The notes: generated from the sequence alone by a model not told the origin. A DNA stretch of 32,000 nucleotides from Halogeometricum borinquense DSM 11551 (GCF_000172995.2 NC_014729.1:2340001-2372000); one strand, 5' to 3'; counted from the stretch's first letter, positions 9,318 through 29,557 are shown. Translations and numbers: made by a program.

Positions 9318-10100
9318 CTACTCCACGAACTCCTCGACGCCACGGGCCGGGTAGCCGACGATCACGTCGGCACCCGCCTCCTTCAACGTAGAGACCTGTT
9401 CGCGGACGCGTTCGACGCTCCCGACGAGCGCGTAATCTCGGACGGCCGCACCCAGCACGTCGCGGGCGCGGTCCGCAGCGTTCGAGTCAGTCTCCGCTCC
9501 TTCCGGTAACGCCTTGGCGACCGGGCGGCGGCGGGCGGCGTACGCGCCGACGGCATCGAGGATTTCGTCTTCGTCGTCGGAGAGGACGGTCGGTGCGTAG
9601 ACGGCGATTTCGCCGTCGTATCCGGTCGCGCGAAGTGCGCGGAGGTTCGATTCAGTGCGCCGCGAGAGCAATTCGTACTGTGTCCCGCCGACGGCGAGCG
9701 CGACACGTTCGATACCTTCGGTGCCGACCCACGCATCGGGGGCGCGTTCGATGCCAGCGGCGAGGCGCGGCGAGACGGCGCGTCCGGCCTCCGACTCAGT
9801 GAGGTAGGCGGCGTGACCCGCTACGAGAACGCGTCGGACGCCCTCGGGAATCCACTCCCACAACTCGTCGTCGCCGGTCGGGTCGAATCCGTCGGCGCGG
9901 ACGGGCGTCGTGAGTCGTACCTCCCGGTCGTCAGCGAGTTCGCGGAGTACGTCTGCGTCCGGAAGGTACTCGCGACCCTCGTAGTCGATAGCGACAGTGT
10001 CGAACGGCGTCTCGAGAGCCATCCGAACGTCGCACTCTTTCGGCTTCAGGGCTACCGCATCGATACCCGTCTGCGAGACGCTACGCTCACCGGTCAGCAT
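9318..10100 (-). CDS. conserved hypothetical acidic protein (C-terminal segment resembles the luciferase-like/LLM tail)
   Basis: The ORF has haloarchaeal acidic composition. The C-terminal YALVGSVERVREQVSTLKEAGADVIVGYP resembles LLM-class enzyme ends. An alternative start exists at ATG 10022 (MALETPFD). Confidence 0.55.
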   Translation of the reverse strand: MLTGERSVSQTGIDAVALKPKECDVRMALETPFDTVAIDYEGREYLPDADVLRELADDREVRLTTPVRADGFDPTGDDELWEWIPEGVRRVLVAGHAAYLTESEAGRAVSPRLAAGIERAPDAWVGTEGIERVALAVGGTQYELLSRRTESNLRALRATGYDGEIAVYAPTVLSDDEDEILDAVGAYAARRRPVAKALPEGAETDSNAADRARDVLGAAVRDYALVGSVERVREQVSTLKEAGADVIVGYPARGVEEFVE

Positions 10101-10254
10101 CGTGTATCACCACTCACGGGAAGAGAACTATCGTCGTCGCGGAACGCGATCCATCGTCTGTGCGACCATGTAAACTGCTTTGCCTACCGCGGGATAAACT
10201 CGTCGTTCAACGGCACTTCTTGCGACGGGTGGAGTCAAAAGGACGGCTCGACCG

Positions 10255-10854
10255 TCACAGCGGCAGTTCGGCATCCGGATCAACTACTCTGTCGGGTTCG
10301 GGCGGTGCGCGCCAGTCGGTAGTGAGTTCGAGCAGTTGCACGAGCATTCGACCCGTCGCCCCCCAGACGGTGTAGCCATCGACGTGGAAGAAGTGGAGTC
10401 GTCGTTTCCCGTAGTGAGGATGCATCCGCTCTTCGGACTCGTAGTTGTCGAGGTTGGTGAGGTCGGACACCGCCAAGACGGCTATCTCCGCAACTTCGCG
10501 CTCGTCGGGTTCGTACTCTCTGTCCGGGACCCGCGCGACGAACGGCGTCACCGAATAGTCGGTGACTGTTTTGATGTCGTCGAGACATCCGAAGAACTCG
10601 ACCTCGTTGCTCCGGAGTCCAATCTCTTCGTACGCCTCGCGGAGAGCAGTCGCGCGCAGGTCTCCGTCGCTGGGTTCGCGGGACCCGCCGGGAAAACTCA
10701 TCTGCCCGGGGTGTTCACCGAGATGGTCCGCGCGCTTCGTAAAGAGGACATGGTCCTCGCCCCGACGGGTGAGAACGGGCGCGATGACCGCCGCTTGCCG
10801 ACCAGCATCTGTCAGCGTTTCGGCGTCACACGACGATACCCGCGAGAGATCCAT
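10255..10854 (-). CDS. NUDIX hydrolase, CoA pyrophosphatase-like
   Basis: The Nudix box is GGSREPSDGDLRATALREAYEEIGL (Gx5Ex7REUxEExGU). The preceding LFTKRADHLGEHPGQMSFPGG is typical of the CoA pyrophosphatase subgroup. Confidence 0.85.
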   Translation of the reverse strand: MDLSRVSSCDAETLTDAGRQAAVIAPVLTRRGEDHVLFTKRADHLGEHPGQMSFPGGSREPSDGDLRATALREAYEEIGLRSNEVEFFGCLDDIKTVTDYSVTPFVARVPDREYEPDEREVAEIAVLAVSDLTNLDNYESEERMHPHYGKRRLHFFHVDGYTVWGATGRMLVQLLELTTDWRAPPEPDRVVDPDAELPL

Positions 10855-10915
10855 ACTAGTTCGAAATGTCGGAGGCGCTTAGACTTAGCTCTCGCGGCAC
10901 GTGTGCGATGTTCGT

Positions 10916-11398
10916 TCACTCATCTAGTTCAGTCTCGAAACGCGACCGAATGTCGCCCACATCCACGTCGCGGGCGGTCCACAGTTCCACGTCGTACGTC
11001 ACGTCGAGGAGCTGTCGAATCCGATTGTCGTCGCCTGCTTCGAGAGCATCATCGGCGTCGGCTCGAAGTCGCGAGAGTGCGGCCTCGGTGACAGCCTCCT
11101 CGTCCGCCGTTCGCTCGTCCACGTCGAGAATGTGCGGCAAGTCCTCGGCGTTCTCTGGGAGTGACGGGAACGCGACGGGTCCGGGGACGACGCGCTCGAC
11201 GCCGTCGCGTTCGTACGTGACGAGGTAGTAGTTCGAGACGGCTTCCTCGACAGCGTCCGCCAGCGCCTCCCGGTCGGTATCTTGCCCCTGCTTGAACGCC
11301 AGTTCGTCGAGCGCGCGTTCGAGTTCAGCGCGCGTGAGTACGCCGAACAGATCAACGACGCCCGCCAACTCGTCGTACAACGCCTCCTTGTCGCTCAC
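10916..11398 (-). CDS. conserved hypothetical acidic protein
   Basis: 160 aa and very acidic. Its GTG start overlaps the stop of the upstream glycosyltransferase (GTGA at 11395-11398), which implies co-translation. Confidence 0.6.
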   Translation of the reverse strand: MSDKEALYDELAGVVDLFGVLTRAELERALDELAFKQGQDTDREALADAVEEAVSNYYLVTYERDGVERVVPGPVAFPSLPENAEDLPHILDVDERTADEEAVTEAALSRLRADADDALEAGDDNRIRQLLDVTYDVELWTARDVDVGDIRSRFETELDE

Positions 11399-12495
11399 GA
11401 CGAGACCTCCTCGGCGTCCGCGACGGCCGCTTCGACCACCTCATCGGGCGATAACGGCGCGTCCGACCACGGCGGAAGCCGTCGGTCTTCACCCGCGGGT
11501 TCGGCCACCGCGTCGGCGTACGCCGCCACCTGTTCTCGTTCGCCTGCGCGGTCGAACTCGAAGTCGTTGAACGCCGCGTCGGCGGCGTACTGATCGACGA
11601 GACGGTCGGCTGCTGTCTGATACCGGTCCGGCAACGTGTCGAAGTCCGGTGCGACGCCGTGGTCAGCGACCGTACGAAACAGCGTCTCGCCGACGGACTC
11701 GCTCATATCCGAGAGGCCTGTCGGCCCGGAGACGGCGCGATGGTCGTGTTCGTACGCGCCGAGGTCAACCTGCGCCGTCCCGTCGAATCCGGCGATGCCG
11801 AATGCGTCGCCGAGAACGCCGACTTCGAGACCCCAGTCGCGCGGGGCGCGAATCGACCGCGCCATCTCGCTCGTCGCGGCGAATTCGCCCGCCAGCGCGT
11901 ACCGGAAGGCATCGAGATACTGCAAGATCGGAGCGTCCGACTCGGAGCGCAGCGCGCGGACGAGCGGGACGTAGAACAGGCGGAACAGGCGGCCGTACAG
12001 GCGTCGGTCCTCGACGCGGGCGTAGTAGCCTTTCGAGAACTCGTAGCCGTTCGCCAGCGGGAACAGCAGACGAGAGACGTACGACCGGTCGTACGTCTTC
12101 GTATCGGCGTCGTGAACCACAACGTACTCTTCCGTCGCGGCGGGGCCGAGCGCCAACCACACGTCGCGTCCCTTCCCTCGTTTATCGTTCAATCCCACCG
12201 AATCGAGCAGATCGGCAACGCGCGGCCCGTCACACCACAGGATGTCGAGAGAAAGGTCGTACTGGGAGAGCCACTCGCAGAACGGACCGACGCGGTCTTT
12301 CGGCGCGCGGAGAGGAACGACGACGCGGGCCGGTTCGACGCGTTCGAGGACCGAGAGGACGCGGTCGGCCGCCAGTCCGGCGTACTCGCGCTCGGTCATC
12401 GGGACGACTACCGCCGTCCGACTCGTCGGGGCGTCGGGAACCGGGTCAGTTAGGTCGTGTAGCGTCGTCACCCGCTCCTGAACGTACTCCATCAA
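11395..12495 (-). CDS. GT2/GT81-like glycosyltransferase (glucosyl-/mannosyl-3-phosphoglycerate synthase-like)
   Basis: 366 aa with AVVVPMTEREYAG, a DxD-type motif (VVVHDADTKTY), FSKGYYAR and RLYGRLFRLFYVPL. This pattern recalls GpgS/MpgS-type retaining glycosyltransferases. Confidence 0.7.
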   Translation of the reverse strand: MMEYVQERVTTLHDLTDPVPDAPTSRTAVVVPMTEREYAGLAADRVLSVLERVEPARVVVPLRAPKDRVGPFCEWLSQYDLSLDILWCDGPRVADLLDSVGLNDKRGKGRDVWLALGPAATEEYVVVHDADTKTYDRSYVSRLLFPLANGYEFSKGYYARVEDRRLYGRLFRLFYVPLVRALRSESDAPILQYLDAFRYALAGEFAATSEMARSIRAPRDWGLEVGVLGDAFGIAGFDGTAQVDLGAYEHDHRAVSGPTGLSDMSESVGETLFRTVADHGVAPDFDTLPDRYQTAADRLVDQYAADAAFNDFEFDRAGEREQVAAYADAVAEPAGEDRRLPPWSDAPLSPDEVVEAAVADAEEVSS

Positions 12496-16541: not shown

Positions 16542-17468
16542 TTACTCGGCGTCGGATGTCGCATCCGAGTCGTCCGCCGACTCACGGAAAGCGTCGATAG
16601 CCGCGCGGTACCCCGTTCGGTACGTCGGATACGCAAACTCGTAGCCGAGTTCACGCAGTCGGTCGTTCGAACACCGCTTGCTCGTCAGAATGCGCCGACG
16701 AGCGGCCTCCGAAAGGTCCGGGTCGTCCAGTCGTTCCTCCTTGGTCCGTTTTGGCGGATGCGAGACGCCGCACTCGTCGGCCAGCCAGTCCGCGAACGAC
16801 CATTTGTCCACGGGTTCGTCGTCTACAACCAGAACCACGTCGTCGCGGGCGGCGTCGGCTTCGAGAAGGAATCGGACGGCACCGGCGGCATCGTCGCGGT
16901 GGACCATGTTGAGATAGCCCTCCGTGACGGGACCGGTAAGATATCTGTCGAGTCGGTACCGGTCCGGGCCGTACAGACCGGCAAACCGTGCGACTGTTCC
17001 GTCGATACCCGCCGCTGACGCGTCTTCGACGGCAACCCGCTCGGCTTCAGCGAGAACGCGCGTCTTGTCAGTCGTCGGGTCAAGCGACGTCTCCTCGTCT
17101 ACCCAGCCGCCGCCGTGATCGCCGTAGACGCCCGTCGAGGAGGTGTACACGAGTCGGTCAGGTTGCGACGCTCGTCCGCCATACTCGTCGATGACGTTCT
17201 GAAGTCCTTCGACGTAGACGCGCCGAGCGGCCTCGGCACCGCGCCCGCCGGAACTAGCAGCGAACACCAGCCAATCGGCGTCCGGAAGCGGCGCGAGAGA
17301 ATCGGGATCGGTCACGTCCGCACGAGCGGGCGAGAACCCAGCGGATTCGACCGCCGCGAGGCCGTCATCGGAGCGACGGACGCCCGTTACGTCGTGACCG
17401 CTCTCGGCCAACTGACGGCCGAGTTCGAGACCGACGTAGCCGCATCCGAGTACGAGTGCGTGAGCCAT
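16542..17468 (-). CDS. NAD(P)-binding SDR / NAD-dependent epimerase-dehydratase family protein
   Basis: The N-terminal Rossmann motif is ALVLGCGYVGLELGRQL, with YTSSTGVYG further in. The protein is 308 aa. Confidence 0.85.
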   Translation of the reverse strand: MAHALVLGCGYVGLELGRQLAESGHDVTGVRRSDDGLAAVESAGFSPARADVTDPDSLAPLPDADWLVFAASSGGRGAEAARRVYVEGLQNVIDEYGGRASQPDRLVYTSSTGVYGDHGGGWVDEETSLDPTTDKTRVLAEAERVAVEDASAAGIDGTVARFAGLYGPDRYRLDRYLTGPVTEGYLNMVHRDDAAGAVRFLLEADAARDDVVLVVDDEPVDKWSFADWLADECGVSHPPKRTKEERLDDPDLSEAARRRILTSKRCSNDRLRELGYEFAYPTYRTGYRAAIDAFRESADDSDATSDAE

Positions 17469-17900
17469 CTATCGGTCGTTTCGCTCGGCGATGTAGCCGT
17501 GGATGGCTGCCAGTTGTTCGAGCGTCATCGACGTTCGACCCTCAAGGGCCTGCTGTACCTCCTGTCCGGAGAGGTCCAACGTCACGTTCGAGGCGATGGT
17601 GTCCACGTCAAGCACGCCCGTCGTCATCCCCATCAGGAGGTGATCGCGGAGTTCGAGGACGATAGCTTCGCTGTCGGGGTAGTCGTCGGAAAGTGCCAAC
17701 AGAGCCGCTGCATCCTCGACGTGCATCTCGGGGACTGCACCGTCCGCGAGGGCGGCAACCTGCGCTTCGTCTACGCCGGATTCAGCCGCCGCCGCTTCGA
17801 CGCCAACATCGTCCACGACGGTCCGAATCTGCGTTTCGTACGCCTCCCGCAACTCGGTCGTCGATAGCGCTGCTGGGTCGTCGGCCGCGTCGTAGAGCAT
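17469..17900 (-). CDS. conserved hypothetical acidic protein
   Basis: I place the start at ATG 17898-17900 (MLYDAADDPAALSTTELREAYE...). The upstream part of the track ORF overlaps the 3' end of the 1004-aa gene in another frame and is R/S-rich. Its TAG stop abuts the SDR ATG (TAGATG). Confidence 0.6.
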   Translation of the reverse strand: MLYDAADDPAALSTTELREAYETQIRTVVDDVGVEAAAAESGVDEAQVAALADGAVPEMHVEDAAALLALSDDYPDSEAIVLELRDHLLMGMTTGVLDVDTIASNVTLDLSGQEVQQALEGRTSMTLEQLAAIHGYIAERNDR

Positions 17901-17979: not shown

Positions 17980-20900
17980 TTACTCCCGCGGACACCGCCC
18001 CGTCGGCGTATCACATCGTGGCCCCGGTGCCGAACCGGACCACGCCTCGGATGTCTCGAAGGCGTCGCCGTCGATGTCTCCGACGCCGTTACCGCCGGGT
18101 GGAACCGCGGCGACGACGACGGTCCGTAGCTCGAAGCCGATGCGTTCGTTCGATCCGATGGCCTCTCGACTTCCGTCACCGTCAACGTCCAAACGAACGA
18201 CGGACCCATCGCGGACGTACGTCGTCGGCACCGCACCGTCACCCGCCGAAACGGTAAAGCGAGCGTACGCACCGTGTGCTTCGACTACCCAGAGATTCGT
18301 CGTCGCGACCCACGGACTCATCGTCGGCGAGAGCGGAAGCCCCGCCGGAACCGCACCGAGCGTCCCGTTCAGCGCGTGACTCGTCAGGCGGTCCGCACCG
18401 CGGGAGGCCGCTTCCCGGCCGAGTTCTCGCACGAGCGTCCGCGTCCGAGTCGCGGTTCCGTTCACGGCCGCCTCCGAAACGCGAACCCGCGATGCTGTGG
18501 TCGTCTCGCGCAACTCGACACGGAGCGCAGTCGCCACGCGGTCCTGAGCCATCTCTCCGTCCAGATCCGCTTCCGTCGCTATCGCGGTCGCCAGTGAGTC
18601 GTTCGACGCGGCGACAGCACGTTGGCCGACGCCGTCCCAGTGGGCGAGTCCGGCGGCAACAGCATCTTCGCTCTCTGCGTGCGTCAGGTCCGTCTCGCGT
18701 TCGACCGTCGATGCGGCCGTCTCACGGACGGGAGCGAGCGAGTGCTTGACCTCCTTTCGGAGTTCGTTGCTTCGGCGGCGGAGCGTCGAATCGGATTGGA
18801 CGGCGAGCGTCCGGTCCGCGGCGACGAGTGCGCGCCCGGCAGTTCTGAGCGACACCTCACCGCCGGGACCGAAGATGTCACCGACGACAGCGTCAGCGAG
18901 GTCCCCGTACGGAAGCGTGAACAGGTTGGTGTTGCGCGCGGCGAGTGGGGTGTATGTGGCGTCGTCTGCGACACCATCGATGGCTCGTCCATCGACGCCC
19001 GACAGCGAGAGATACGCCGGGTCGCCGTCGGGGACGAACGCCGCTGAACTGTTCGACAATTCGCGGGTATCGGCGGTCGTCCGACTCGACAGACGGTCCC
19101 GCGTCGCCGTTGCGTTCACACCGCGCGAAGCGAGTGCGTCCTGAAGTCGGTCGTTCCGACCGGCGGCCTCGGCGGCCCGTTCGTCCAGTCGTGCGAGGAC
19201 CGTATCGAGATATGCCGCGCGTGCGGCGACACGAACCCGGTCTGCGACACCGTCGTACGTCGCCGGGGCATCGACCAGTTCCGCTCGCCGGTCGCGGAGC
19301 GCCGCCGCCAGTGTAGCTGCGGTGTTGGCGTGACCGGTGGCGGTTTCCTGTGCCGCGACGTCCACCGAGACGTTTCTGACCCGCTCACGGAGCGCTGCCA
19401 CGTCGGCGTACACCCACGCGCGAAGCGCAGACGGGCGGTCGGTTTCGGCGCGTGCGGGATCGTAATCCGCGCTACCCGTTACTGCTTGACGAGCGACGGT
19501 GTTCGCACCACCCCGAGCGGCGAGTTCGTCGCGCGCGAGACGGGCGACGGATTCGAGATTCGGTCCCGAAAGCGCCCCACCGCGTTCGAACAGCGGTTCT
19601 ACGGCGCGGTCCGGTCCCGGCAGCGACCGAAGCGACCCGACGACGGCGACGCGGACGCGGTACCGGTCGGTCCACTGCGCCGTCGTCGTTCGACTCGAGT
19701 GATTCGCCGCGCGCCACGTCCGAGTAACGGTGTGCCGGACGACGACTTGCCGCGTCGTCGTCTTGAACGCGCGTGCGCCGACGCCGACAGACGGCGGTGC
19801 TGCTGTCCCGCGATCAACTACGGAGACATCACTATCTACGTCTTCGGCGGCGAGCGACCACGACACGTCGGACGAATCAGGTGCCTCGGGCGCGGGACGG
19901 TGTCCCTCGTTTTCGTCGAGGACGTCGCTGACGACTGTCACGCTCGGCGTGTATCCGGTGCGAATGACCGAGTCAAGAGCCGTGTCGGAGGAATCATCGG
20001 TCCCGCGAAGGAACGCGAGAAACGCGTCATCTGCAGTTTCGTTGACGCCGACAGTGAGAGTTCCCGTCGGCATCGTAGTCGGTGTCGGTCGGGGGTTCGG
20101 ACTCGGTGTCGCAGAGACGAGTTTCTCGGTCGTCGATCCGCCAGCGACCGGGGACAGGAGGTCGGTAAGGCCGGTTCGGAGCGTCGCCGCACGAACACCT
20201 CGCTTGGCGTCGGGATCAACGCGGCCGAACGATGCACGCTGGGCGGCGAGGACGCCCGCGTTGGTCGAGAGTTCAACGTGGCGGTTGCCGAGGACGTTCT
20301 CGATTGGCGCACCCGCGTACTGACCGAGGGCGCGTGCCTGCGTGATAGCAAGGAGTCCTGCCGTCGTGCGACGCGCCAGACCGGGCGCATACACGGGCGA
20401 TTCGTTCAGTCGTCGCTGGTAATCGGTCGTCCGCGCGTGGAGTGCGAGGACGGGAACTGCGACGGTCACGCGGCGTGTCACTGTCCGGGTGGCGACCACG
20501 CGGTCCTCGTGAGTAGCGACGAGCGAGACGTTACTAACGGCGACTGTGAGAGCGCGACCCTCGTTCTCACTCGATACGGAGACGTTCCGAACCGCCGCAT
20601 CAAGACCGGCAGAGAGCGGTGGCAAGGTGGCTCTCGCTGTCGTCATCCCGCGACGATGTTCGACTCCCGAAAGCGCGTCACGGGCAGCGAGTGCGATCCG
20701 GAGCCGTAGATAGTTATGGAACGTTTCGTTCGGGCCGAGCGTTCGACCGACCGCGGAGTTCGCGGGTGTCGTCACGGGATCCCTCGCCGCCGCGCATGCC
20801 GCTTCGCGGACAGCGACCCGGAGCGCGGCAGTCGTCTCGGCGTCCACACGTTCCATGGCAACGTCTGTCGAACGGTCCACGACGCCCGTATCGGGCGACG

Positions 20901-20994
20901 CGAGCGACGCGGCAAACGTCGAACTGCCGACGAGAAGCAGAACGCCGACGAGCGCGAACGGAACGCGTCCGCGGTTGTCGTCTGCGAGGCGCAT
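17980..20994 (-). CDS. 1004-aa N-terminally anchored protein, last gene of the Tad/T4P-like locus (function unknown)
   Basis: The N-terminus is MRLADDNRGRVPFALVGVLLLVGSSTFAASLA (basic residues followed by a hydrophobic helix). The protein has many NxS/T sequons and a P/T-rich linker (SATPSPNPRPTPTTMPTGT). The C-terminus carries CDTPTGRC. The ATG overlaps the upstream stop (TGATG at 20992-20996). Confidence 0.75.
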   Translation of the reverse strand: MRLADDNRGRVPFALVGVLLLVGSSTFAASLASPDTGVVDRSTDVAMERVDAETTAALRVAVREAACAAARDPVTTPANSAVGRTLGPNETFHNYLRLRIALAARDALSGVEHRRGMTTARATLPPLSAGLDAAVRNVSVSSENEGRALTVAVSNVSLVATHEDRVVATRTVTRRVTVAVPVLALHARTTDYQRRLNESPVYAPGLARRTTAGLLAITQARALGQYAGAPIENVLGNRHVELSTNAGVLAAQRASFGRVDPDAKRGVRAATLRTGLTDLLSPVAGGSTTEKLVSATPSPNPRPTPTTMPTGTLTVGVNETADDAFLAFLRGTDDSSDTALDSVIRTGYTPSVTVVSDVLDENEGHRPAPEAPDSSDVSWSLAAEDVDSDVSVVDRGTAAPPSVGVGARAFKTTTRQVVVRHTVTRTWRAANHSSRTTTAQWTDRYRVRVAVVGSLRSLPGPDRAVEPLFERGGALSGPNLESVARLARDELAARGGANTVARQAVTGSADYDPARAETDRPSALRAWVYADVAALRERVRNVSVDVAAQETATGHANTAATLAAALRDRRAELVDAPATYDGVADRVRVAARAAYLDTVLARLDERAAEAAGRNDRLQDALASRGVNATATRDRLSSRTTADTRELSNSSAAFVPDGDPAYLSLSGVDGRAIDGVADDATYTPLAARNTNLFTLPYGDLADAVVGDIFGPGGEVSLRTAGRALVAADRTLAVQSDSTLRRRSNELRKEVKHSLAPVRETAASTVERETDLTHAESEDAVAAGLAHWDGVGQRAVAASNDSLATAIATEADLDGEMAQDRVATALRVELRETTTASRVRVSEAAVNGTATRTRTLVRELGREAASRGADRLTSHALNGTLGAVPAGLPLSPTMSPWVATTNLWVVEAHGAYARFTVSAGDGAVPTTYVRDGSVVRLDVDGDGSREAIGSNERIGFELRTVVVAAVPPGGNGVGDIDGDAFETSEAWSGSAPGPRCDTPTGRCPRE

Positions 20995-21872
20995 CAGCGA
21001 CCACCCTCCGATTCATCGCCCCACGTCCGGACAACGATTCTGACCTCACTCACGGAGACGGCGGCCGCAGCATCCGCGGGCGAGTCGTAGCGCGCCCGCA
21101 GATCAGACTCGACTCGCGGCGCGAGGGCGTCCGCAAGGCGCTGGTTCGCTACATCGGTGTCGGCATCGGCTATCGGGTCTTCGACGGAGACGTTCAGTGC
21201 TGCGGCGAGACGTGCGTAGCGGTACCGAACGAGCGTCGAAACGGGCGGGTCCCCGCGGAGAGCGAGGCGCGTTCGACTCGCTGGCGCAACCGTTTCGATA
21301 GTTTGCGCCGCGACGGCGTTCGAGAGCGACTCGAAGTCATCCGTCTCGTTTGCCGGAAGCGACTGCGTTCGCGTGGGAATCGTCAGCGTCGCCGCGTCCG
21401 TCGCGGCCGACTGCGGCGGAGACGCACCGACGGCGACGTGTCCTTCGACCGGTGCATCGGGGTAGGGCCGCCACGCGGCGTCGATTCTGAGACCGGTCGG
21501 CACAAGTCTGGCCGTGATGGCCTCCCGAACTGACGACCGGAAGTCGTCGCGTGCGTGTGTCACCGGCGTGCCGTCGAAACCGGCGGTGCCGACGGTAACG
21601 CGGGCGAGCAGCCCCGCAAGTGACCCGTGTGTCGTTCGCTCGAACTCCGGACCCGACGTTCGCCGGAAGTCGGCACCGCTCTCGTTCGCCCGCCGCGCAC
21701 CCGGCGAGAGCGAGTAGTTCACTGTCGCCGTACTGGTAGCAAGCACGTTCGCAACGGCATCTGAACGGCCGTCGTCGAGGGTCGGCTGCGACCCTGCATC
21801 GGCGGTGGTAAGACCGACGACGGCCGCCCCAAGGAGCAACAGGAACACCGCGGCGTCGAGGGTGGCGTTCAC
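20994..21872 (-). CDS. N-terminally hydrophobic protein of the Tad/T4P-like locus (function unknown)
   Basis: The GTG start at 21870-21872 overlaps the upstream stop (GTGA), with an alternative GTG at 21878. The N-terminus is MNATLDAAVFLLLLGAAVVGL. The track ORF extension upstream is R/S/P-rich and overlaps the preceding gene. Confidence 0.65.
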   Translation of the reverse strand: MNATLDAAVFLLLLGAAVVGLTTADAGSQPTLDDGRSDAVANVLATSTATVNYSLSPGARRANESGADFRRTSGPEFERTTHGSLAGLLARVTVGTAGFDGTPVTHARDDFRSSVREAITARLVPTGLRIDAAWRPYPDAPVEGHVAVGASPPQSAATDAATLTIPTRTQSLPANETDDFESLSNAVAAQTIETVAPASRTRLALRGDPPVSTLVRYRYARLAAALNVSVEDPIADADTDVANQRLADALAPRVESDLRARYDSPADAAAAVSVSEVRIVVRTWGDESEGGR

Positions 21873-22300
21873 GACCACACCACCACCGTCAGACGGCCGG
21901 GTTCGACCTGTCCGGGTGAGAGACGAACGCTCACGAGGCGACTCGCGCGGTCGGTCGCCTCCTGCGGGACGGCTGGACCGACGGTCCACACGTCGTCCGA
22001 GGCGGTGAGCGTAACGTTGAGACGGCGGCCATCCGGCCCGCGAGTCATTGCGTCGGGAAGTCGCTCGGCGTCTACCACGCCACCGTCGTCAATAACGTCG
22101 TGAACGCGGTCAAGCGTTGGATCAGCGACGGCTCGATCCTCAAGGAGTGGAATCGAACCACCGAGGACGGTCACATAGAGGCTCAGTCCTGCGCAGACGG
22201 CAAACAGCGCGGCCAATGCGGCGACGGGTGACGTTTGGGCGCGTGCCCGTCTCCGCTCGCCCGTCCGAGTAGCGCCGTCACGCGTCCACGAGGACAACAT
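21869..22300 (-). CDS. pilin-like protein (class III signal-peptide-like N-terminus) of the Tad/T4P-like locus
   Basis: ATG start at 22298-22300. The N-terminus ...GERRRARAQ/TSPVAALAALFAVCAGLSLYVTVLG resembles an archaeal prepilin motif: basic residues, a small residue plus Q, then a hydrophobic helix. It overlaps the upstream gene by 23 nt. Confidence 0.6.
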   Translation of the reverse strand: MLSSWTRDGATRTGERRRARAQTSPVAALAALFAVCAGLSLYVTVLGGSIPLLEDRAVADPTLDRVHDVIDDGGVVDAERLPDAMTRGPDGRRLNVTLTASDDVWTVGPAVPQEATDRASRLVSVRLSPGQVEPGRLTVVVWS

Positions 22301-22757
22301 CGACTCCCTCCCAAGTCGTTTTGCGGACGAGAAGCGTGCGGTCCACCTCGCGCCACGTTGCGTTGCTTGTGCGGGTGCGCGAATCGATAACGGCCTGTTG
22401 GAACGCCGCCGGCGAGTCGAAGACGGCCGATGGGTGCGCACCGTGAATCACGTCACGAAGCGGCGAGTCACCCGCCGGAACGGGTGTGACCGGAGCGAAC
22501 GCGAACGTCGCGTGCGCCGTCCCGGCGTCGTTTCGGAGTGCGAGACGGCGCGTTTCGAGTTTGACCGCCGTCGCGTCCAGCGGATGTTCGGCCGTCGATG
22601 CGTACTCGGTCGCCGCCACACGGTCTACCGTCTCAGCCGCCGCAGTAGCGTTCGGCGGTGGGGCTGTTGGGAGTCCAGACGCCGCGCCGACGAGGGCGAC
22701 GCCCGCAAGCGAGAGCCCCAGCCACGCGTACCACGAATCGAGGGGAACGTCGAGCAT
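22278..22757 (-). CDS. N-terminally hydrophobic protein, first gene of the four-gene accessory module (function unknown)
   Basis: 159 aa with N-terminus MLDVPLDSWYAWLGLSLAGVALVGAASGL and an NAT sequon. It is preceded by its own TATA core (22777-22789), 22 nt from the ATG. Confidence 0.65.
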   Translation of the reverse strand: MLDVPLDSWYAWLGLSLAGVALVGAASGLPTAPPPNATAAAETVDRVAATEYASTAEHPLDATAVKLETRRLALRNDAGTAHATFAFAPVTPVPAGDSPLRDVIHGAHPSAVFDSPAAFQQAVIDSRTRTSNATWREVDRTLLVRKTTWEGVDVVLVDA

Positions 22758-22776
22758 GAGCCGTCTGGCCGCGCTC

Positions 22777-22789
22777 CCGTATATAAACC
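22777..22789 (-). promoter_or_regulatory. promoter core GGTTTATATACGG (TATA box) upstream of the four-gene accessory module
   Basis: The 13-mer and its 22-nt spacing to ATG 22757 are identical to those upstream of the ATPase gene. The flanking bases are also similar (CGCG.C.CCGTATATAAACC on the plus strand). Confidence 0.6.
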
Positions 22790-22805
22790 CTCGCAGGGGT
22801 GCAGT

Positions 22806-24533
22806 TCAGAACACGAGTGCCGCACCACGGAACGCAGCGAGATACGCGGCCGTCGCTGAAAGGAGCGCGAGACCGACGCGGTAGCCGACGAGCGTTCGGT
22901 CGAGTCCTCGGTCGAGACCGGTCGCGAGGGTAGTCAACACAACCGCGAGAACGAGAACGTACGCACCGACGGCCGTGCCGAGGAGTTCGGGTCCGAGCGC
23001 CTGCGCCCCGTCTTCGACGAGTGCCGTGTCCGCGGCACCCATCCGCGCCGCCATTGCCACCGTGGCACCACCGACTAACGGCGCGAACAGGGCGGCAGTG
23101 TTCGAGAGCGTTCCCGTCACCGACGCCAGTTCGCGCCGGGCCTCACTCTCGACGCGGCGAAGTTCGCTGAGATGGTCGGCGGTGGCGACGACAGCGTGGC
23201 CTGCCGGTCGGCCTTCCGTCGCGGCCACGGAGAGCAGTGCAGCGGCCGCCCTCGTCCGCGGACTGGGAACGTCGGCGAGGACACCATAGCGCCCGAGAAA
23301 CGCCTCGCGGACGCTGACGCGGAGGCGGCGACGGACGCCCGCGGCGTCGGCGAACACCGCTCCTGCCGGGGTCGAAACGGCGTCCGCGGCGGATTCGAGT
23401 GCGACCTCGACAGAGTCACCAGCACTGACACGCCGACCAACCAGCGAGAGTACGTCGTCCAGACCCGATTCAACCTCGCGGACGCGTTCTCTGACCCGTG
23501 CCATCGGGTAGTAGCGTCCGACCAAGCCCGCTCCGACGCCTGTGCCGGCGGCGGTGAGCGCGTCGGCCCACGGGGCGACGGCTGAACCGACGAACCAGCC
23601 GACGATACCGCAGAGAACGCCTGCCCCGACCGCGGGGAGAGCGGACGACGGGACATCCGGATGGCTCGAATCGACGCGCGGCGGGGCGAGTGCGACCGGC
23701 CGCCGGAGCAATATCCACGCGCTCGCGGCGACGAGACCGAGCGGCAGAAGTAGATCATAGACGGCTACGAACGCCGCAGTCGGGACGGCGACACCGCCCG
23801 CACGGGCCGCCGGGAGGACGCCAACGAGCGCGAGTGGGAGGAGAACACCGAAGGCGTAGACGCCGGTTGTCGGGCCGCGAACGTCCGCCGCGAACGACGC
23901 GAGTTCGTCGCGCGTCCCGTCGAGGACAGCGTCGAGCGCGCGTTCTAACCCTCGCTCGCGTTCGTCCGGCTGTGCGTCGGCGCTGGCGAGAAGAAGCGAG
24001 ATAGCACGCTCCAACGCGGGGAAGTGGTCGCGCCACTCGCGTGCGAACGATTCGAATCCGGAGTTCGGCGTACCGCGGGCGCGACGGACGTGTTCTGCGA
24101 GACTGTCAGCCAGCGGTCCGTCGGCCGTGTGCGCGGCGAACGACGCGGCACGTTCGGGCGTTGGTCCGAGTTGCATCCGGAGCGTCGCGCGGCCGACAAG
24201 CGCAGGCGTCTCGCCCAGTGCGCGCGTCCGGCGGAGTCGGGCTGCGACGACCGGGAGTCGGTGAACCGCATGCGTTCCGACGAGTCCGATAGCGAGGGAC
24301 GCACACAGGCGAACAACGATCGGTGAGCGCGGTGCGAGTAGTGAAACGAACGCGAACGAGACGAGTGTGAGCGGGAGGCTCAACACGTACCCCGCTCGAA
24401 CGACCATTTCGGCGTCTGTGTCGCTGCCGAGATACGACAGCGCGGACCGGACATCCTCACCCGGTTCGACCGACCACGGATACACCTGCGCGAGCGACTC
24501 AACGAGATGGGAGCAATTCGACGGAGCAGTCAT
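22806..24533 (-). CDS. type II secretion system F-family membrane protein (TadB/TadC-, PilC-, FlaJ-like; two-domain)
   Basis: 575 aa with two blocks, each a cytoplasmic helical region followed by TM helices. The ATG overlaps the ATPase stop (ATGA at 24530-24533). This is the typical partner of a secretion ATPase. Confidence 0.8.
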   Translation of the reverse strand: MTAPSNCSHLVESLAQVYPWSVEPGEDVRSALSYLGSDTDAEMVVRAGYVLSLPLTLVSFAFVSLLAPRSPIVVRLCASLAIGLVGTHAVHRLPVVAARLRRTRALGETPALVGRATLRMQLGPTPERAASFAAHTADGPLADSLAEHVRRARGTPNSGFESFAREWRDHFPALERAISLLLASADAQPDERERGLERALDAVLDGTRDELASFAADVRGPTTGVYAFGVLLPLALVGVLPAARAGGVAVPTAAFVAVYDLLLPLGLVAASAWILLRRPVALAPPRVDSSHPDVPSSALPAVGAGVLCGIVGWFVGSAVAPWADALTAAGTGVGAGLVGRYYPMARVRERVREVESGLDDVLSLVGRRVSAGDSVEVALESAADAVSTPAGAVFADAAGVRRRLRVSVREAFLGRYGVLADVPSPRTRAAAALLSVAATEGRPAGHAVVATADHLSELRRVESEARRELASVTGTLSNTAALFAPLVGGATVAMAARMGAADTALVEDGAQALGPELLGTAVGAYVLVLAVVLTTLATGLDRGLDRTLVGYRVGLALLSATAAYLAAFRGAALVF

Positions 24534-26473
24534 CGGCGGACCTCGCGCACATCGGCCGCGGCGTTCGGAAGGTCATCGGGTCGCGTCTGGTCTGTTTCGG
24601 CGAGGTGCGAGAGCGTCGCTGTCCGGCGGTCGAGTGCGTCGAGTACGTCGGCGTACGATTCGTCGTGCCGGGCGAGCGCGGCGACCAACGAACTATCACC
24701 ACGCGTGACGACTCCAGTCTCTTGAATACCGTTGCCGTCGCGGCCGTAGAGCGTCTCGAAATGAACGCCCTCGTCGGTCTGTCGAACCTCGGCGACCGTC
24801 TCGACTCGCCTGTCGGAACCGTCACGAGTGCAGGTGACAACGAGGTCTGTCGCCGCGAACGACGATTCGGGGACGCCGAGGTCCGAGACGACCCGTTCGC
24901 GGACGGCTGCGGGCGAGTCGCCGTGAATCGTCCCGAGAACAGCGTGGCCGTGTGCGCCGACTCGCATCGCTTCGTAGAGGGCGCTGGCCTCGTCACCCCG
25001 AACCTCGCCAACGACGAGAGCGCCGTCTCCGAGCCGGAGCGCGGTACGGACGGCATCTGTCGGCGAAAAGGAACCGTCCTCACCGAGGTCGGTGTGGAGG
25101 GGTTGCACGTCGCGCCCGCCGTCTCTGAGCGCCGCGACCGGGAGTTCCGGGGTGTCTTCGACGGTGACGAGACGCGTCGCCGCCGGGAGTTCCCAGAGAA
25201 GAGAGCCAAGAAGCGTCGTCTTGCCCGCACCGCGCGTTCCCGCGACGAGGCCCGTCGCACCGCGTTCGACAGCAAACGAGAGAAACGCCGCCGTCTCGGC
25301 CGAGAGGGTCCCCGAAGCAACGAGACCGGGGAGCGTCCACGCTCGACCGTCGTGTGCGCGGAAGGCGAATCCGATGCCGTCGCTCGCAGGGGCGGTGACG
25401 CCAGCGACGCGGACGCGTGACCCGTTGGGCGCGTCGATCGCGGCGTCCAGTGCGGGCGACGCGCGGGAGAACCCGCGTCCGCTGGCGTGTCGGAACCGAG
25501 ACGCGAGCGCCGCGGCCCCATCCGGCGTGAGACGGACGTTCGTCCGGATACGCTCACCGTCGATCGCAACGCGTACCGGATTTGACGCAACCGGAGCCGA
25601 CGCAACCACGTCGGTCACTCGTGGATCAGCAAACAGGTCGTCGAGAACGCCGTTCCCGCGCGTGTGACGGTTGAGTACGTCCGTTAACGTCTCCACTGGG
25701 TCGTCGTCGTCCGCGACGTGCCGCACGGCTCGGCCGGCAGCACGCTCTCCGCCCTGCACGATTCCGCGCGCGAGACACTCGTGTGCCGCCGCCAGCGTCG
25801 CCGTCGCGTCTGCGTCGAGTTCGTGCGCAACGGGCGTGAGATGATACAGTCGGCCGTCGCCGGTCCGGTACAGACGAACCGTCGCGCCGGTATCAAGTTC
25901 TCGCCGGTCGAGGAGAGCGGCATCCGACGGAAGTCGCCGAGCGACACGGGAACGGGCGACTGACGGTCCCACGTAACTCCACAGGAGACTCTCGTAATCG
26001 TCTGCACGTTCGACACCCGCGGCAAGGCCTGTCTCGGCCGCGAGAGTCGCCACCGGTCCCGCCCGACCGGTTGCTCGCCGGACCGCATCTATCGGGTCTC
26101 GGGTGGCGCGTTCTGCGAGCGATTCGTCGTGGAATCCGACGCGTTCGGCGAACCGACCTGCCGCGAGCAAAACACCCGCAGCATCGTCGTCGTAGGTGCG
26201 TTCGAGACCGTCAGCACGGACGCGAACCACGTCCGCGTCTCGGTCCGCGAGTGCGCCAATGACGGTGGCACGGCACGCGGGAACGCCGGCGAGGTCACCG
26301 CCACCGGGACAGTCGGTCGCATCGACGACGAGCTCCGTCCGGTCTGTCGTCCGGCCGGTCGGCGTCTCGAACGAGTGTTGGCACCGGCAGGCGGATTCAT
26401 CGTCATCGGTGTCGGTATCGAGCGAGAGCGCCGAACCGACAGCGGCGATGCAGGCGGTGAAGTCGAGAGGCAT
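24530..26473 (-). CDS. type II/IV secretion system ATPase (TadA/CpaF-VirB11-PilB superfamily) with about 250-aa N-terminal extension
   Basis: Motifs present: Walker A GTRGAGKTTLL, Asp box VTVEDTPEL, Walker B ALVVGEVRGDEA and His box HAVLGTIHG. I place the start at ATG 26471-26473 (MPLDFTAC...), 22 nt downstream of a TATA core. The upstream part of the track ORF overlaps the preceding gene. Confidence 0.9.
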   Translation of the reverse strand: MPLDFTACIAAVGSALSLDTDTDDDESACRCQHSFETPTGRTTDRTELVVDATDCPGGGDLAGVPACRATVIGALADRDADVVRVRADGLERTYDDDAAGVLLAAGRFAERVGFHDESLAERATRDPIDAVRRATGRAGPVATLAAETGLAAGVERADDYESLLWSYVGPSVARSRVARRLPSDAALLDRRELDTGATVRLYRTGDGRLYHLTPVAHELDADATATLAAAHECLARGIVQGGERAAGRAVRHVADDDDPVETLTDVLNRHTRGNGVLDDLFADPRVTDVVASAPVASNPVRVAIDGERIRTNVRLTPDGAAALASRFRHASGRGFSRASPALDAAIDAPNGSRVRVAGVTAPASDGIGFAFRAHDGRAWTLPGLVASGTLSAETAAFLSFAVERGATGLVAGTRGAGKTTLLGSLLWELPAATRLVTVEDTPELPVAALRDGGRDVQPLHTDLGEDGSFSPTDAVRTALRLGDGALVVGEVRGDEASALYEAMRVGAHGHAVLGTIHGDSPAAVRERVVSDLGVPESSFAATDLVVTCTRDGSDRRVETVAEVRQTDEGVHFETLYGRDGNGIQETGVVTRGDSSLVAALARHDESYADVLDALDRRTATLSHLAETDQTRPDDLPNAAADVREVRR

Positions 26474-26492
26474 GGGGTCGATGGTCGCGTCT

Positions 26493-26505
26493 CCGTATAT
26501 AAACC
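26493..26505 (-). promoter_or_regulatory. promoter core GGTTTATATACGG (TATA box) upstream of the secretion ATPase
   Basis: On the minus strand, TTTATATA lies exactly 22 nt upstream of ATG 26473, directly after the stop of the preceding gene. The same 13-mer occurs at 22777-22789. Confidence 0.6.
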
Positions 26506-26976
26506 TCAGCCAGAGTAGGCACGCGAGGCGACCAGTACAGGACCATCCGCTGTCCGCCGAAGCGCGACCGAGATCGGTCGGTCGCCGTATCCGCGGAGGA
26601 CGATAGGACCGTTCGGTGTCCGGAGTGCGACCGGGAGCGAGAGCCGACGCGTTATTTCCGTGCCACCGGCCACCGCGTAGGTCACGACCGACCGGTTTCC
26701 CTGTCCGCCGGGTTGCCCACCGACAGCGACGTAATCGATACCTGCGCTCGTCCACGTCGGCGACGGGAGCGAGAACGTCACGGTTCGCGTCGGCGCGACA
26801 GCGGCGTCACTCGTCGCATCCGAACCGTACGCGAGCGCCGACCCGGCCGCCGAGAGTCGTTCGACGGAAGTGTCCACTCTCGTCGCCGTTCGGTCGGCCC
26901 GGGCGTCTTCGACCGCCGGAAGCGACGCACCGAGGACCGCGACAGCGAGGACCGCCGCGAGAACGACGCGAATCAC
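26506..26976 (-). CDS. single-pass membrane/secreted protein of the Tad/T4P-like locus (function unknown)
   Basis: The GTG at 26974-26976 lies 1 nt after the stop of the upstream coiled-coil gene. The N-terminus is MIRVVLAAVLAVAVLGASLPAV, followed by a soluble domain that looks beta-rich. Confidence 0.6.
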   Translation of the reverse strand: MIRVVLAAVLAVAVLGASLPAVEDARADRTATRVDTSVERLSAAGSALAYGSDATSDAAVAPTRTVTFSLPSPTWTSAGIDYVAVGGQPGGQGNRSVVTYAVAGGTEITRRLSLPVALRTPNGPIVLRGYGDRPISVALRRTADGPVLVASRAYSG

Positions 26977-26977
26977 G

Positions 26978-27451
26978 TCACAGCGCCTCGCGGAGGCGTG
27001 CGGCGAGAGAGTCCTCCGCCTCGTCCCCGTCGGTATCGCAAGCGGTGTCGTCACGGCGGTCCGCCACGTCGCCGACTGTCTCCGCGTCGTCCGGAAGGCG
27101 TTCGACGACGAGGCCGTCATCCTCGTCGTGCGCGGCGGCGAGTTGTTCGGCTATCGCAAGTGCGAGATCGGCGCGGCGTTCGACTGATTCGTTTACCGCC
27201 TGCACGCCGCCCAGGAGACCACGAACCGCCTCAAGTTCGGCCGACAGTTCGGACACACGCCGGTCGAGAGCCGCTATCGACTGTTCGAGATCCGCCACGG
27301 TCGTCTCGGACAGCGCTTCGGCGGCCTCGGTATCCGTGTCGGTACCCGACGCGTCGTTCGACGGTTGGTCGCGGTCGTCGTCAGTCAGAGCGCGTTCAAC
27401 GGCGTCGAGACGGGCTGCAAGCGTTGTGAGGTCGGTTTTGTCATCCGGCAT
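26978..27451 (-). CDS. acidic coiled-coil protein, first gene of the Tad/T4P-like locus
   Basis: ATG at 27449-27451 gives MPDDKTDLTTLAARLDAVERAL ... DLEQSIAALDRRVSELSAELEAVRGLL. It shows heptad-like periodicity and very acidic tails. The longer track ORF (to 27877) is antisense to cetZ and S/P/R-rich. Confidence 0.65.
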   Translation of the reverse strand: MPDDKTDLTTLAARLDAVERALTDDDRDQPSNDASGTDTDTEAAEALSETTVADLEQSIAALDRRVSELSAELEAVRGLLGGVQAVNESVERRADLALAIAEQLAAAHDEDDGLVVERLPDDAETVGDVADRRDDTACDTDGDEAEDSLAARLREAL

Positions 27452-27474
27452 GGGGCGACTGGTCCCGTCATGTG

Positions 27475-27482
27475 AAATAAAA
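27475..27482. promoter_or_regulatory. AT box (AAATAAAA / TTTTATTT) in the 76-bp divergent intergenic region; candidate shared TATA for cetZ and the pilus-like locus
   Basis: It is the only AT-rich element between 27452 and 27527. On the minus strand it reads GAGGTTTTATTT, 23 nt before ATG 27451, the same geometry as the two promoter cores below. Confidence 0.45.
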
Positions 27483-27527
27483 CCTCGGTGGGGAAAGTTG
27501 AAGGTCGGTACTAACGAGTCATCCGAT

Positions 27528-28613
27528 ATGAAGACCGTCCTGATAGGTGTCGGCCAGGCCGGCGGGAAGCTTACCCGCGAACTGGTTGACTTCGATGAAC
27601 GAATGGAGTTCGGCGCGGTTCTCGATGCAGTCGCCGTGAACTCCGCGAAGGCTGACCTGCGCGACATTCCGTTCGAGACGATTCTCATCGGACAGGACCG
27701 CGTGAAAGGCCACGGGGTCGGCGGCGACAACGAACTCGGCGCGGAAGTCATGCAAGCAGACAAGCGCGAGGTGCTCTCAGCACTCGACGGCCGCATCACC
27801 GCCGAAGCCGAAGCGATTTTCGTCGTCGCCGGACTCGGCGGCGGGACCGGAAGCGGTGGCGCACCCGTCCTCGTCAATGAACTCCAGCAGATCTACGACG
27901 TACCAATCTACGCTCTCGGCATCCTTCCCGGCGACAGCGAAGGCGCGATGTATCAGGTGAACGCCGGACGGTCGCTGAAGACCGTCGCTCGCGAAGCAGA
28001 TTCGCTCCTCCTCGTTGACAACGACGCGTTCCGGAGTTCGGGCGAGAGCCTCGAACAGGGATACGACGCGATCAACCGCGCTATCGCCCAGCGCGTCGGA
28101 CTCCTGTTCGCCTCCGGTGAGGCAGTCGAGGGCGTCGCAGAGAGTGTCGTTGACTCCTCTGAGGTCATCAACACGCTCCGCTCGGGCGGCATTTCGGCGC
28201 TCGGCTACGCCGCCGCTGAGTCCGCCGATAGCTCCGAGGGCAACATCAACACCGTGATGAGTACCACGCGGCGCTCTCTCCTCACTGGCACGAGCCTCCC
28301 CGAGGCGACAACAGCTGATTCGGCGCTCCTCGTCGTCGCGGGCGAACCGGACAAGATACCTCGCAAAGGCGTCGAGCGCGCCCGCCGATGGATCGAAGAG
28401 GAAACCGGAAGCCTCCAAGTTCGTGGCGGAGACTTCCCGCTGGATTCCGGACGCATCGCGTCGCTCATCCTTCTCGGCGGTGTCGAGCGCTCCGACCGGC
28501 TTGAAGCGTTCATGCAACGCGCAAAAGAGGCCGTTAAAGAAGCCGAAGAGACCGAAGAGCGCGAAGACCCCGCCGAGACGTGGCGGAACGACGAACTCGA
28601 AGACCTCATCTAG
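27528..28613 (+). CDS. cetZ: CetZ-family tubulin/FtsZ-superfamily GTPase
   Basis: MKTVLIGVGQAGGK (GxGxxG), AVNSAKADL, RVKGHGVGGDNELGAE, the T4 tubulin signature GLGGGTGSGGAPV, T7-like LLVDNDAF and an acidic C-terminal tail. The GGGTGSG form and overall pattern match the CetZ sequences I remember rather than FtsZ. Confidence 0.9.
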   Translation: MKTVLIGVGQAGGKLTRELVDFDERMEFGAVLDAVAVNSAKADLRDIPFETILIGQDRVKGHGVGGDNELGAEVMQADKREVLSALDGRITAEAEAIFVVAGLGGGTGSGGAPVLVNELQQIYDVPIYALGILPGDSEGAMYQVNAGRSLKTVAREADSLLLVDNDAFRSSGESLEQGYDAINRAIAQRVGLLFASGEAVEGVAESVVDSSEVINTLRSGGISALGYAAAESADSSEGNINTVMSTTRRSLLTGTSLPEATTADSALLVVAGEPDKIPRKGVERARRWIEEETGSLQVRGGDFPLDSGRIASLILLGGVERSDRLEAFMQRAKEAVKEAEETEEREDPAETWRNDELEDLI

Positions 28614-28639: not shown

Positions 28640-29035
28640 TGGCGTTCGAGAACCCGTCGAGACGGACTCGTCTGTGTCAGCGTGACCGATGAATCGAGAC
28701 GGATCAAGTGGCGGAGACGAGACTGTGCGTAAAGCGTGAGATAGCGAGCGGAGACGGGACACTGAGTGAACCGCCTCGGGGTCAAGTGGTTCGAGAGACT
28801 TCGTCTCTCGTCATCACGGAAATCTTTGATTTCCGTATGACTCCGAGGCTTCCCGTGGGTTAGTCGGACACTCCCACTCGACCATCGGCCTGATAGCCTC
28901 GAACGGTCGGTTGGGTCACGGTCGGGGCGTCCACGGCCCCCGATGCCCGCCGTCTCAAAGTCGCGAAGCGACTTTGCGGGCTGCACAAGAGCTCCGCTCT
29001 TGTGAACGTCGAACCTTCCGAACAACGGGAAGGCT
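28640..29035 (-). ncRNA. candidate TnpB omega-RNA (reRNA) scaffold / right-end region
   Basis: The position (3' end of tnpB and downstream) and the density of perfect 8-9-bp hairpins fit the known omega-RNA layout. The hairpins lie at 28924-40, 28956-76, 28984-29004, 29014-33, 28792-810 and 28817-35. The ends are not determinable by eye. Confidence 0.3.
28787..28845. repeat. twin-hairpin module, copy A (inverted relative to copy B)
   Basis: Hairpin 1 is cgagagac-ttc-gtctctcg (28792-28810) and hairpin 2 is cggaaatc-ttt-gatttccg (28817-28835). A 7-bp closing stem gcctcgg/ccgaggc (28773-79 / 28843-49) encloses both. Confidence 0.7.
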
Positions 29036-29557
29036 GTTGAGAGCAGGCACATTCCAATCGAGTTTCTTCACGCCTTTCACGGCGATGTTGACGCTTGCAC
29101 TACGGTCGCTGTGGTCTTGATGGGAACAGTCCTTGCACTTGAACCGCTTCTTGTTTCGGTTCGCACGCTCCGTATTCCCACACATCGGACACCGCTGACT
29201 CGTGTACTCGGGGTTAATCCACGCGGTCGGAATCTCCTTGAACGACGCCTTGTACGACGTATAGAACTGAAGGGCGCGGAACGGGAGGTGGTGCAAGCGT
29301 CGGTTCATCCGCGTGCCGTAGTCGATACTGTCGCGCATTTCTTTGAGGTCTTCAAAGACGATGCACGGCTTCTCGAACTGACGGCTCCACTCCACGATGT
29401 GACGACTCACCTTGTGGAGTCGGTCGCGGACAAACCGTTCTTCGCGCCCTTCGAGCGTGTCGTGGGTACTGTCTTTCCCCGCGTTCTGGACGCGCTTCCG
29501 CATCGTGAAGTAGCGGTGACGCTCGAACTTGATTTCGGGGAAGTCAATAACCAACAT
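28860..29557 (-). pseudogene. tnpB: tnpB (RNA-guided endonuclease, IS200/IS605 OrfB) remnant: 5'-truncated, possible 3' frameshift
   Basis: The remnant retains a RuvC-II-like IVFEDLKEM, the Zn ribbon CPMCG...FKCKDC and RuvC-III-like DHSDRSASVNIAVKG. The N-terminal WED/REC/RuvC-I half (about 200 aa) is missing. After the stop at 28955 the reading continues in another frame (RRRASGAVDAPTVTQPTVRGYQADG) down to 28860. Confidence 0.7.

Follow-up and report, generated by a model that had tools for sequence, protein, structure and literature searches.

A predicted type IV filament locus beside cetZ2 in Halogeometricum borinquense probably belongs to the previously described 4F system

What kind of machine is encoded next to the tubulin-like gene cetZ2 in Halogeometricum borinquense, and are there pilins among its proteins? 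We analyzed 32,000 nucleotides (nt) from strain DSM 11551 (GCF_000172995.2 NC_014729.1:2340001-2372000; we call this whole stretch "the window" and count positions from its first letter). A preliminary description of the window had recognized a type IV filament engine (a secretion ATPase and a TadC-like platform protein) lying head-to-head with a CetZ gene, and we agree. It had also given this cluster nine genes, with seven accessory proteins, although its own list (2+2+4) sums to eight. By analyzing open reading frames (ORFs) and Pfam families, we found eight genes on the minus strand at 17980-27451, six of them accessory. Loci of this type, the genes that make them up, and the association with cetZ2 are already in the literature, and the window contains a member of a known system. 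Overall, we think it quite likely that the locus is the H. borinquense DSM 11551 copy of 4F (the pilB2/pilC2 regulon by cetZ2) and that it works by the type IV filament mechanism that we propose below. The details that we add are which proteins have a class III leader, a common promoter box, four conserved cysteines near the N-terminus of the ATPase, and structure models.

Subclade 4F was defined by Makarova, Koonin & Albers (2016) as a hybrid: a clade 4 ATPase and TadC, often with a cysteine-rich N-terminus on the ATPase, are combined with predicted pilins of the euryarchaeal type. An S-layer-like or surface protein is frequent in 4F, only the halobacterial version has the aspartate-rich coiled-coil protein arCOG07564, and the FtsZ-family arCOG02202 is in the neighborhood. 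In the same study, pilins of the PilA family that stand alone (arCOG02981) are connected with 4F. In its Table S4, the 4F locus of Haloarcula hispanica begins with arCOG07564, arCOG10216 ("predicted major pilin"), arCOG01818 (ATPase), and arCOG01814 (TadC). It continues with arCOG04673, arCOG05166, and arCOG06291 (predicted pilins), arCOG02945 (a surface protein of ~1000 amino acids), arCOG04674, and arCOG03095. The genome of H. borinquense DSM 11551 was included in that study. Brown & Duggin (2023) found the pilB2/pilC2 regulon specifically beside cetZ2 in Haloferacales and Halobacteriales, and listed a DHH-family protein and a phosphodiesterase as flanking genes. Similarly, in the account of Sivabalasarma & Albers (2026), 4F co-localizes with CetZ2 and includes arCOG02945 as an adhesin-like protein.

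The order and sizes of the genes in the window equal those of the H. hispanica locus, including the equivalents of arCOG04674 and arCOG03095 downstream. The window also shares the cysteine-rich N-terminus of the ATPase and the neighboring cetZ2 with the published descriptions, and nothing essential differs. We assigned the locus to 4F because its architecture is identical to that of the H. hispanica locus. The preliminary description had left the composition of the machine open. Because three papers (2016, 2023, and 2026) describe the locus, this has been superseded: the locus with its CetZ neighbor was catalogued as 4F in 2016, with every accessory gene in an arCOG. The accessory genes do largely fall into known pilin families, but those families were predicted rather than experimentally characterized.

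The engine is the clearest part of the machine. The secretion ATPase (PilB2-type; 24530..26473, minus strand; 647 amino acids; identical to ADQ68023.1) matches the T2SSE family of Pfam (E=4.9e-19). It has a Walker A motif, GTRGAGKTT, at residues 412-420, as well as GEVRG at 489 and TIHG at 515. When we compared it to the sequences in PDB, the closest solved relatives were GspE2 from A. fulgidus (PDB:2OAP), CpaF, and FlaI. (The catalytic region matches CpaF with E~6e-22, and the ATPase matches FlaI with E~1e-18.) Every NCBIfam match is far under the cut-off for its family; the top one is TIGR03819 (the TadA family), with 128 bits versus a cut-off of 373. Near the N-terminus of the ATPase, four cysteines (C29, C31, C55, and C67, arranged as C-x-C...C...C and encoded at 26260-26390) are each present in 97% or more of 69 orthologues. 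Such conservation suggests that the region is a metal-binding module, and not the variable disulfide-forming cysteines that were proposed in the literature.

The ATPase gene overlaps the gene for the platform protein by ATGA, and the two are translationally coupled. (Both this overlap and the ATPase motifs, including Walker A, had been pointed out correctly.) The platform protein (PilC2/TadC-like; 22806..24533, minus strand; 575 amino acids) is polytopic, with at least 6 hydrophobic segments, and the names that its orthologues have at NCBI refer to type II secretion or to TadB. We assign it to the T2SSF family (PF00482) because its orthologues match this family, and not from a match of the window protein itself. 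T2SSF was found in 15 of 28 orthologues, which are 53-78% identical to the window protein. These matches consist of one C-terminal domain at 24-31 bits, which is barely over the threshold, and of the two tandem T2SSF repeats that are expected, the C-terminal one alone was detected. A profile of the orthologues found nothing among the sequences in PDB. Judging from these sequence comparisons, the core pair is a VirB11/CpaF/FlaI-class ATPase with a polytopic platform protein of the T2SSF family, or in other words, a type IV filament engine.

All six accessory proteins belong to Pfam families of unknown function: DUF7310, DUF7311, DUF7283, DUF7285, DUF7284, and DUF7286, in gene order. NCBIfam gave no match for any of the six, and no functionally characterized family matched. 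DUF7310 (26978..27451, minus strand; 157 amino acids; PF23991, E=5e-22; identical to ADQ68025.1) is a predicted cytoplasmic coiled-coil protein that is acidic (28% D+E) and has no transmembrane (TM) segment. Each of the other five has exactly one hydrophobic helix, which is N-terminal. These are DUF7311 (26506..26976; 156 amino acids; PF23993, E=1.5e-44), DUF7283 (22278..22757; 159 amino acids; PF23954, E=7.5e-55), DUF7285 (21869..22300; 143 amino acids; PF23956), DUF7284 (20994..21878; 294 amino acids; PF23955, E=6e-90), and the surface protein DUF7286 (17980..20994; 1004 amino acids; PF23957, 1133 bits), all on the minus strand.

Do any of these five proteins look like pilins? Across the whole window, just two proteins have an N-terminal [KR][GA] site followed by a hydrophobic stretch, and these are DUF7285 and DUF7286. 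DUF7285 has a short leader and a class III-type site, R-[AG]/Q-[TV]-[ES]-P (R-[AG]/Q-T-S-P-V..., with the slash marking the putative cleavage site), which is conserved across 67 orthologues. DUF7286 has a class III-like N-terminus, MRLADDNRG/RVPFALVGVLLLV, that is also conserved in 67 orthologues; their consensus is MRLADDxR-[GA], followed by R-[VI]-P-F-A-L-V-G-V-L-L-L.

For DUF7311, the evidence is its predicted architecture. The AlphaFold2 model, which has a mean predicted local distance difference test score (pLDDT) of 90.6, has a helix at residues 2-51 followed by a beta domain of 8 strands. DUF7311 is thus modeled confidently in the "lollipop" layout of pilin-like proteins. Its profile, when compared to 1.84 billion representatives, gave a self-contained family of 506, and among the best 150 of the 506 there was no sign of a second family. 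About 140 of these best 150 matches start at residue 1-4. The start of DUF7311 without a leader is supported because the database annotations agree on it.

DUF7286 was also modeled by AlphaFold2 (pLDDT 80.4), as a large mixed alpha/beta protein. The model features very long beta hairpins and helices of 30-40 residues. The C-terminal end of DUF7286 lacks an anchor and bears a W...P-x-C-x6-C motif, which is conserved. Sequons for N-glycosylation are enriched in DUF7286 (12, versus 5.3 expected) and in DUF7284 (5, versus 1.4 expected), which fits an extracellular location for both proteins.

The preliminary description had found no recognizable pilin. This is true for standard domain models, but not for signal-peptide motifs and predicted architecture: DUF7285 and DUF7286 have class III-type signal peptides, and the model of DUF7311 is pilin-like. 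Its other negative statements stand, in that the accessory proteins match no functionally characterized family and that the 32-kb window has no gene for a prepilin peptidase, for the archaellum, or for KaiC.

Several results weigh against the interpretation of the locus as a 4F system that assembles a filament. First, DUF7311 (which starts with MIRVVLA), DUF7283, and DUF7284 (MVVNATLD) begin at the TM helix and lack a class III leader, unlike known type IV pilins. (In DUF7283, the TM helix is preceded by MFDAPLDAWY; this N-terminus is conserved across orthologues and contains no class III cleavage motif.) Second, none of the five N-termini matched the Pfam model for the archaeal pilin N-terminal domain, which we take to be PF07790, even at E<=10, and each N-terminus matched only its own DUF. 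Third, when we compared the five pilin-like families to each other with hhalign, there was no significant paralogy (the best pair had 49% probability). Fourth, Foldseek searches of PDB with the models did not find significant matches. For DUF7311, the best hit had E=0.12, with OB and immunoglobulin-like noise, and there was no pilin among the 50 matches listed; for DUF7286, the best hit had E=0.13, with weak noise from SecB and TolC. Fifth, the platform protein was said to be a two-domain T2SS-F/TadC protein. Its orthologues do match T2SSF, but the window protein had no Pfam match, even at E<=10, and an internal duplication could not be demonstrated: aligning the N- and C-terminal halves with hhalign gave E=0.024 and a probability of 2%, with the alignment in register. 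Sixth, we mapped the genes to arCOGs by synteny and size (DUF7310 to arCOG07564, DUF7311 to arCOG10216, DUF7283 to arCOG04673, DUF7285 to arCOG05166, DUF7284 to arCOG06291, and DUF7286 to arCOG02945). Finally, we found no experimental function in the literature for the accessory proteins or for the system. Because we found no experiment on it, we can only infer that it forms a filament.

With these caveats, we propose the following mechanism for 4F. The hexameric ATPase would drive the platform protein to pull pilin-like proteins from the membrane, and these would stack into a surface filament or a short pseudopilus. DUF7285 and DUF7286 would be cleaved by PibD, which is necessarily encoded elsewhere. 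The unit DUF7283-7285-7284-7286 may act like the minor-pilin/PilY1 operon of bacteria, with a priming complex that has the large glycoprotein at its tip. DUF7311, which would be transcribed separately along with DUF7310, would be the best candidate in the locus for the bulk (repeating) subunit; it corresponds to the predicted major pilin of Makarova et al. (2016). DUF7310 might be a cytoplasmic regulator or adaptor, and CetZ2 may position the machine or serve as its scaffold.

A different possibility is that the pilin-like proteins, mostly uncleaved and kept in the membrane, form a short piston or stub instead of a long pilus for adhesion, which is to say a pseudopilus for surface display or secretion that exports the DUF7286 glycoprotein or presents it through the S-layer. 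A canonical class III leader is found in just one small protein (DUF7285), three of the pilin-like proteins start at the TM helix, and the window has no PilA-type pilin, all of which would fit a stub. The richness of DUF7286 in sequons would fit as well, and so would its position, as it is always the last gene of its unit and is translationally coupled to the preceding gene. But the pilin-type N-terminus of DUF7286 would be equally compatible with export and with becoming part of a filament, and stand-alone PilA-family pilins (arCOG02981) could supply a long filament in trans. Also, we know of no secretion pseudopilus in archaea that resembles the type II secretion system. We consider this explanation rather unlikely.

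To return to a type IV filament of the 4F kind, how does it compare to other machines? One of these is the haloarchaeal 4C, the PilB1-C1 operon of H. volcanii, which is likewise a hybrid of a clade 4 (crenarchaeal-type) ATPase and TadC with euryarchaeal-type pilin genes in cis, and is likewise specific to Halobacteria. 4C has a different set of pilins and lacks the coiled-coil DUF7310, the giant DUF7286 protein, and the linkage to cetZ2. There is genetic evidence that 4C has a role in adhesion, whereas 4F has none.

The likeness to bacterial Tad/Flp pili (CpaF/TadA and TadB/TadC) is in the engine: the window's ATPase aligns to CpaF and the platform protein is in the T2SSF family. But the locus has no Flp pilin, TadV, RcpA secretin, or TadZ, and the envelope is archaeal. 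Similarly, the ATPase matches FlaI of the archaellum (whose engine is ArlI/ArlJ), and uncleaved proteins that are anchored at the N-terminus and have a beta-rich domain recall the membrane-anchored ArlF and ArlG. However, the locus has no archaellins, ArlH, ArlX, or ArlCDE, and Foldseek did not return ArlF or ArlG for DUF7311. The minor-pilin/PilY1 operon of bacterial type IVa pili (fimU-pilVWXY1E) encodes small pilin-like proteins and a surface protein of ~1000 amino acids, and is transcribed apart from the engine. The grouping of genes in the window is similar, but there is no sequence relationship and no detectable relationship of folds, and DUF7286 differs from PilY1, which is not a pilin, in having a pilin-type N-terminus.

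The separate transcription that we propose for parts of the locus comes from three promoter-like sites, all on the minus strand. They are TTTATTT-N7-CGGGACCA at 27460..27481, before the ATG of DUF7310; TTTATAT-N7-CGCGACCA at 26482..26503, before the ATG of PilB; and TTTATAT-N7-CGCGGCCA at 22766..22787, before the ATG of DUF7283. The spacing is identical, as all three end 9 nt before the start codon. The pattern TTTATWT-N7-CGSGRCCA has 3 matches in the window versus 0.02 expected, a count that is partly circular since the pattern was derived from these same three sites. Of 69 related loci, 54 have a looser form of the motif upstream of DUF7283. In loci for which the starts of DUF7310 and PilB could be mapped, it precedes these genes as well, and it never precedes any other mapped gene. 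Across 1.57 Mb, 109 of the 164 matches to the loose motif are at these three positions.

Because three equally spaced promoter-like sites precede DUF7310, PilB, and DUF7283, the cluster does not appear to be a single operon. In haloarchaeal promoters, a TATA box ~30 nt before the ATG implies a leaderless transcript, and the TATA boxes of the three sites are at about this distance. This implies three putative leaderless units that are controlled together: DUF7310-DUF7311, PilB-PilC, and DUF7283-7285-7284-7286. The CGSGRCCA box, which is conserved across genera and occurs almost exclusively at these sites, may serve as the operator of a dedicated regulator, which is possibly the adjacent helix-turn-helix protein DUF5791.

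Is the arrangement of the genes conserved? We compared a profile of the platform protein to GTDB species genomes, which gave 343 relatives, and we read the gene order at the best 80 of the 343 loci by using tblastn with the window proteins. Apart from the exception below, the gene order is conserved in these 80 loci, and the genera that share it are Halogeometricum, Halobellus, Haloquadratum, Halogranum, Haloferax, Halorientalis, Halosimplex, Haladaptatus, Halostella, Natribaculum, Halorussus, Halolamina, Halorubrum, and Natronomonas. Because the order recurs in so many genera, the cluster is beyond what would be expected by chance. There is one exception. In the loci from Halovenus (L045, L054, L072, and L075; ~10001-12200), DUF7310-PilB-PilC is followed directly by DUF5791 and an epimerase. 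The four downstream genes for pilin-like or surface proteins are absent from these reduced loci, and no cetZ was detected within the flank that was compared.

The gene for CetZ, a tubulin-like cytoskeletal GTPase (27528..28613, plus strand; Pfam Tubulin and CetZ_C), is divergent from the cluster and is separated from the start of DUF7310 by 76 bp. Among the 80 loci, 50 have a cetZ that is divergent and upstream. The protein in the window scored 564 bits against CetZ2 from H. volcanii (PDB:4B45) and 329 bits against CetZ1 (PDB:4B46), so by sequence similarity it is the orthologue of CetZ2. Overexpression of cetZ2 in H. volcanii raised the counts of surface filaments, and the authors attributed the rise to archaella. 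Under mating conditions, the expression of cetZ2 was reported to be down at most time points. A role of the locus in mating or DNA transfer was dropped, as no feature supports it.

The reduced loci of Halovenus bear on another explanation, in which the ATPase and the platform protein are a spare, interchangeable engine for PilA-type adhesion pilins that are encoded elsewhere, and the accessory genes in cis are dispensable or vestigial. The loss of the four downstream genes with DUF7310-PilB-PilC kept would be consistent with this, and PilB3-C3 from H. volcanii can rescue a deletion of pilB1-C1, which supports modular use of pilins. But elsewhere the four genes and their order are kept across many genera at 30-85% identity (for DUF7286, over the full 1000 amino acids), and the four genes are preceded by a conserved promoter that belongs to them and contains the box found at the engine's promoter. 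Because these genes are retained across genera and have their own promoter with the shared box, they are best seen as a functional, co-regulated unit, and a spare engine is very unlikely. A defense island was dropped as a reading because PADLOC found no match to a defense system.

The start codons deserve comment. The annotated starts of PilB (26473), DUF7311 (26976, a GTG), DUF7285 (22300), and DUF7284 (21878) fall 3' of the starts of the longest ORFs. By exact-sequence look-up, seven of the products (all but PilC) match annotated proteins of H. borinquense DSM 11551 exactly (ADQ68019-ADQ68025, Hbor_24610 onward), and this identity confirms the starts of PilB, DUF7285, and DUF7284. (For DUF7284, there are two annotated starts, giving 294 amino acids from 21878 or 292 amino acids from 21872.) The start of DUF7311 is confirmed by a 156-amino acid protein from H. 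borinquense that is 100% identical; its GTG sits 1 nt past the stop codon of DUF7310. Neighboring genes in the DUF7283-7285-7284-7286 unit share 23, 10, and 1 nt.

Past DUF7286 are DUF5791 (17469-17900) and a NAD-dependent epimerase (16542-17468). A DHH-family protein and a phosphodiesterase also flank the locus. By its position, DUF5791 is arCOG04674, which was reported to be conserved beside cetZ2 whether the pilus regulon is present or not. The G+C content of the window is high, as in other haloarchaea. It is 0.66-0.71 in the cluster (18001-27000) versus 0.57-0.65 in the flanking kilobases. This fits an insertion of the regulon between cetZ2 and arCOG04674, which has been proposed in the literature, although the protein composition might account for it too.

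Just downstream of cetZ2, on the minus strand, there is an ORF of 200 amino acids (28955-29557) that encodes a zinc ribbon as well as a Cas12f1-like/TnpB TNB domain, which is probably the remnant of an IS200/IS605-type element. Nearby haloarchaeal families of unknown function are DUF7388 (9318-10100), DUF7109 (10916-11398), and the aforementioned DUF5791.

What does this locus mean for our understanding of 4F? It does not add a new kind of system, as this type of locus was already published and the genome of H. borinquense was in the census of 2016. We can imagine, as a speculation that we consider quite unlikely, that 4F is not a conventional adhesion pilus and is instead an envelope structure positioned by CetZ2. 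It would be made mostly of the "leaderless" proteins DUF7311, DUF7283, and DUF7284, for which no prepilin peptidase would be required. The structure would carry a glycoprotein of 1000 amino acids whose fold is without a solved relative, and the dedicated CGSGRCCA operator that the three promoters share would switch it on. If true, type IV filaments would be assembled here in a new way, and an archaeal tubulin-like cytoskeleton would for the first time be linked directly and functionally to a surface machine. More generally, knowing what 4F does and why it is adjacent to cetZ2 would say whether tubulin-like filaments in archaea place or scaffold surface machines. The map of the leaders, the pilin-like model of the leaderless DUF7311, and the shared promoter box give concrete handles for functional work on 4F.

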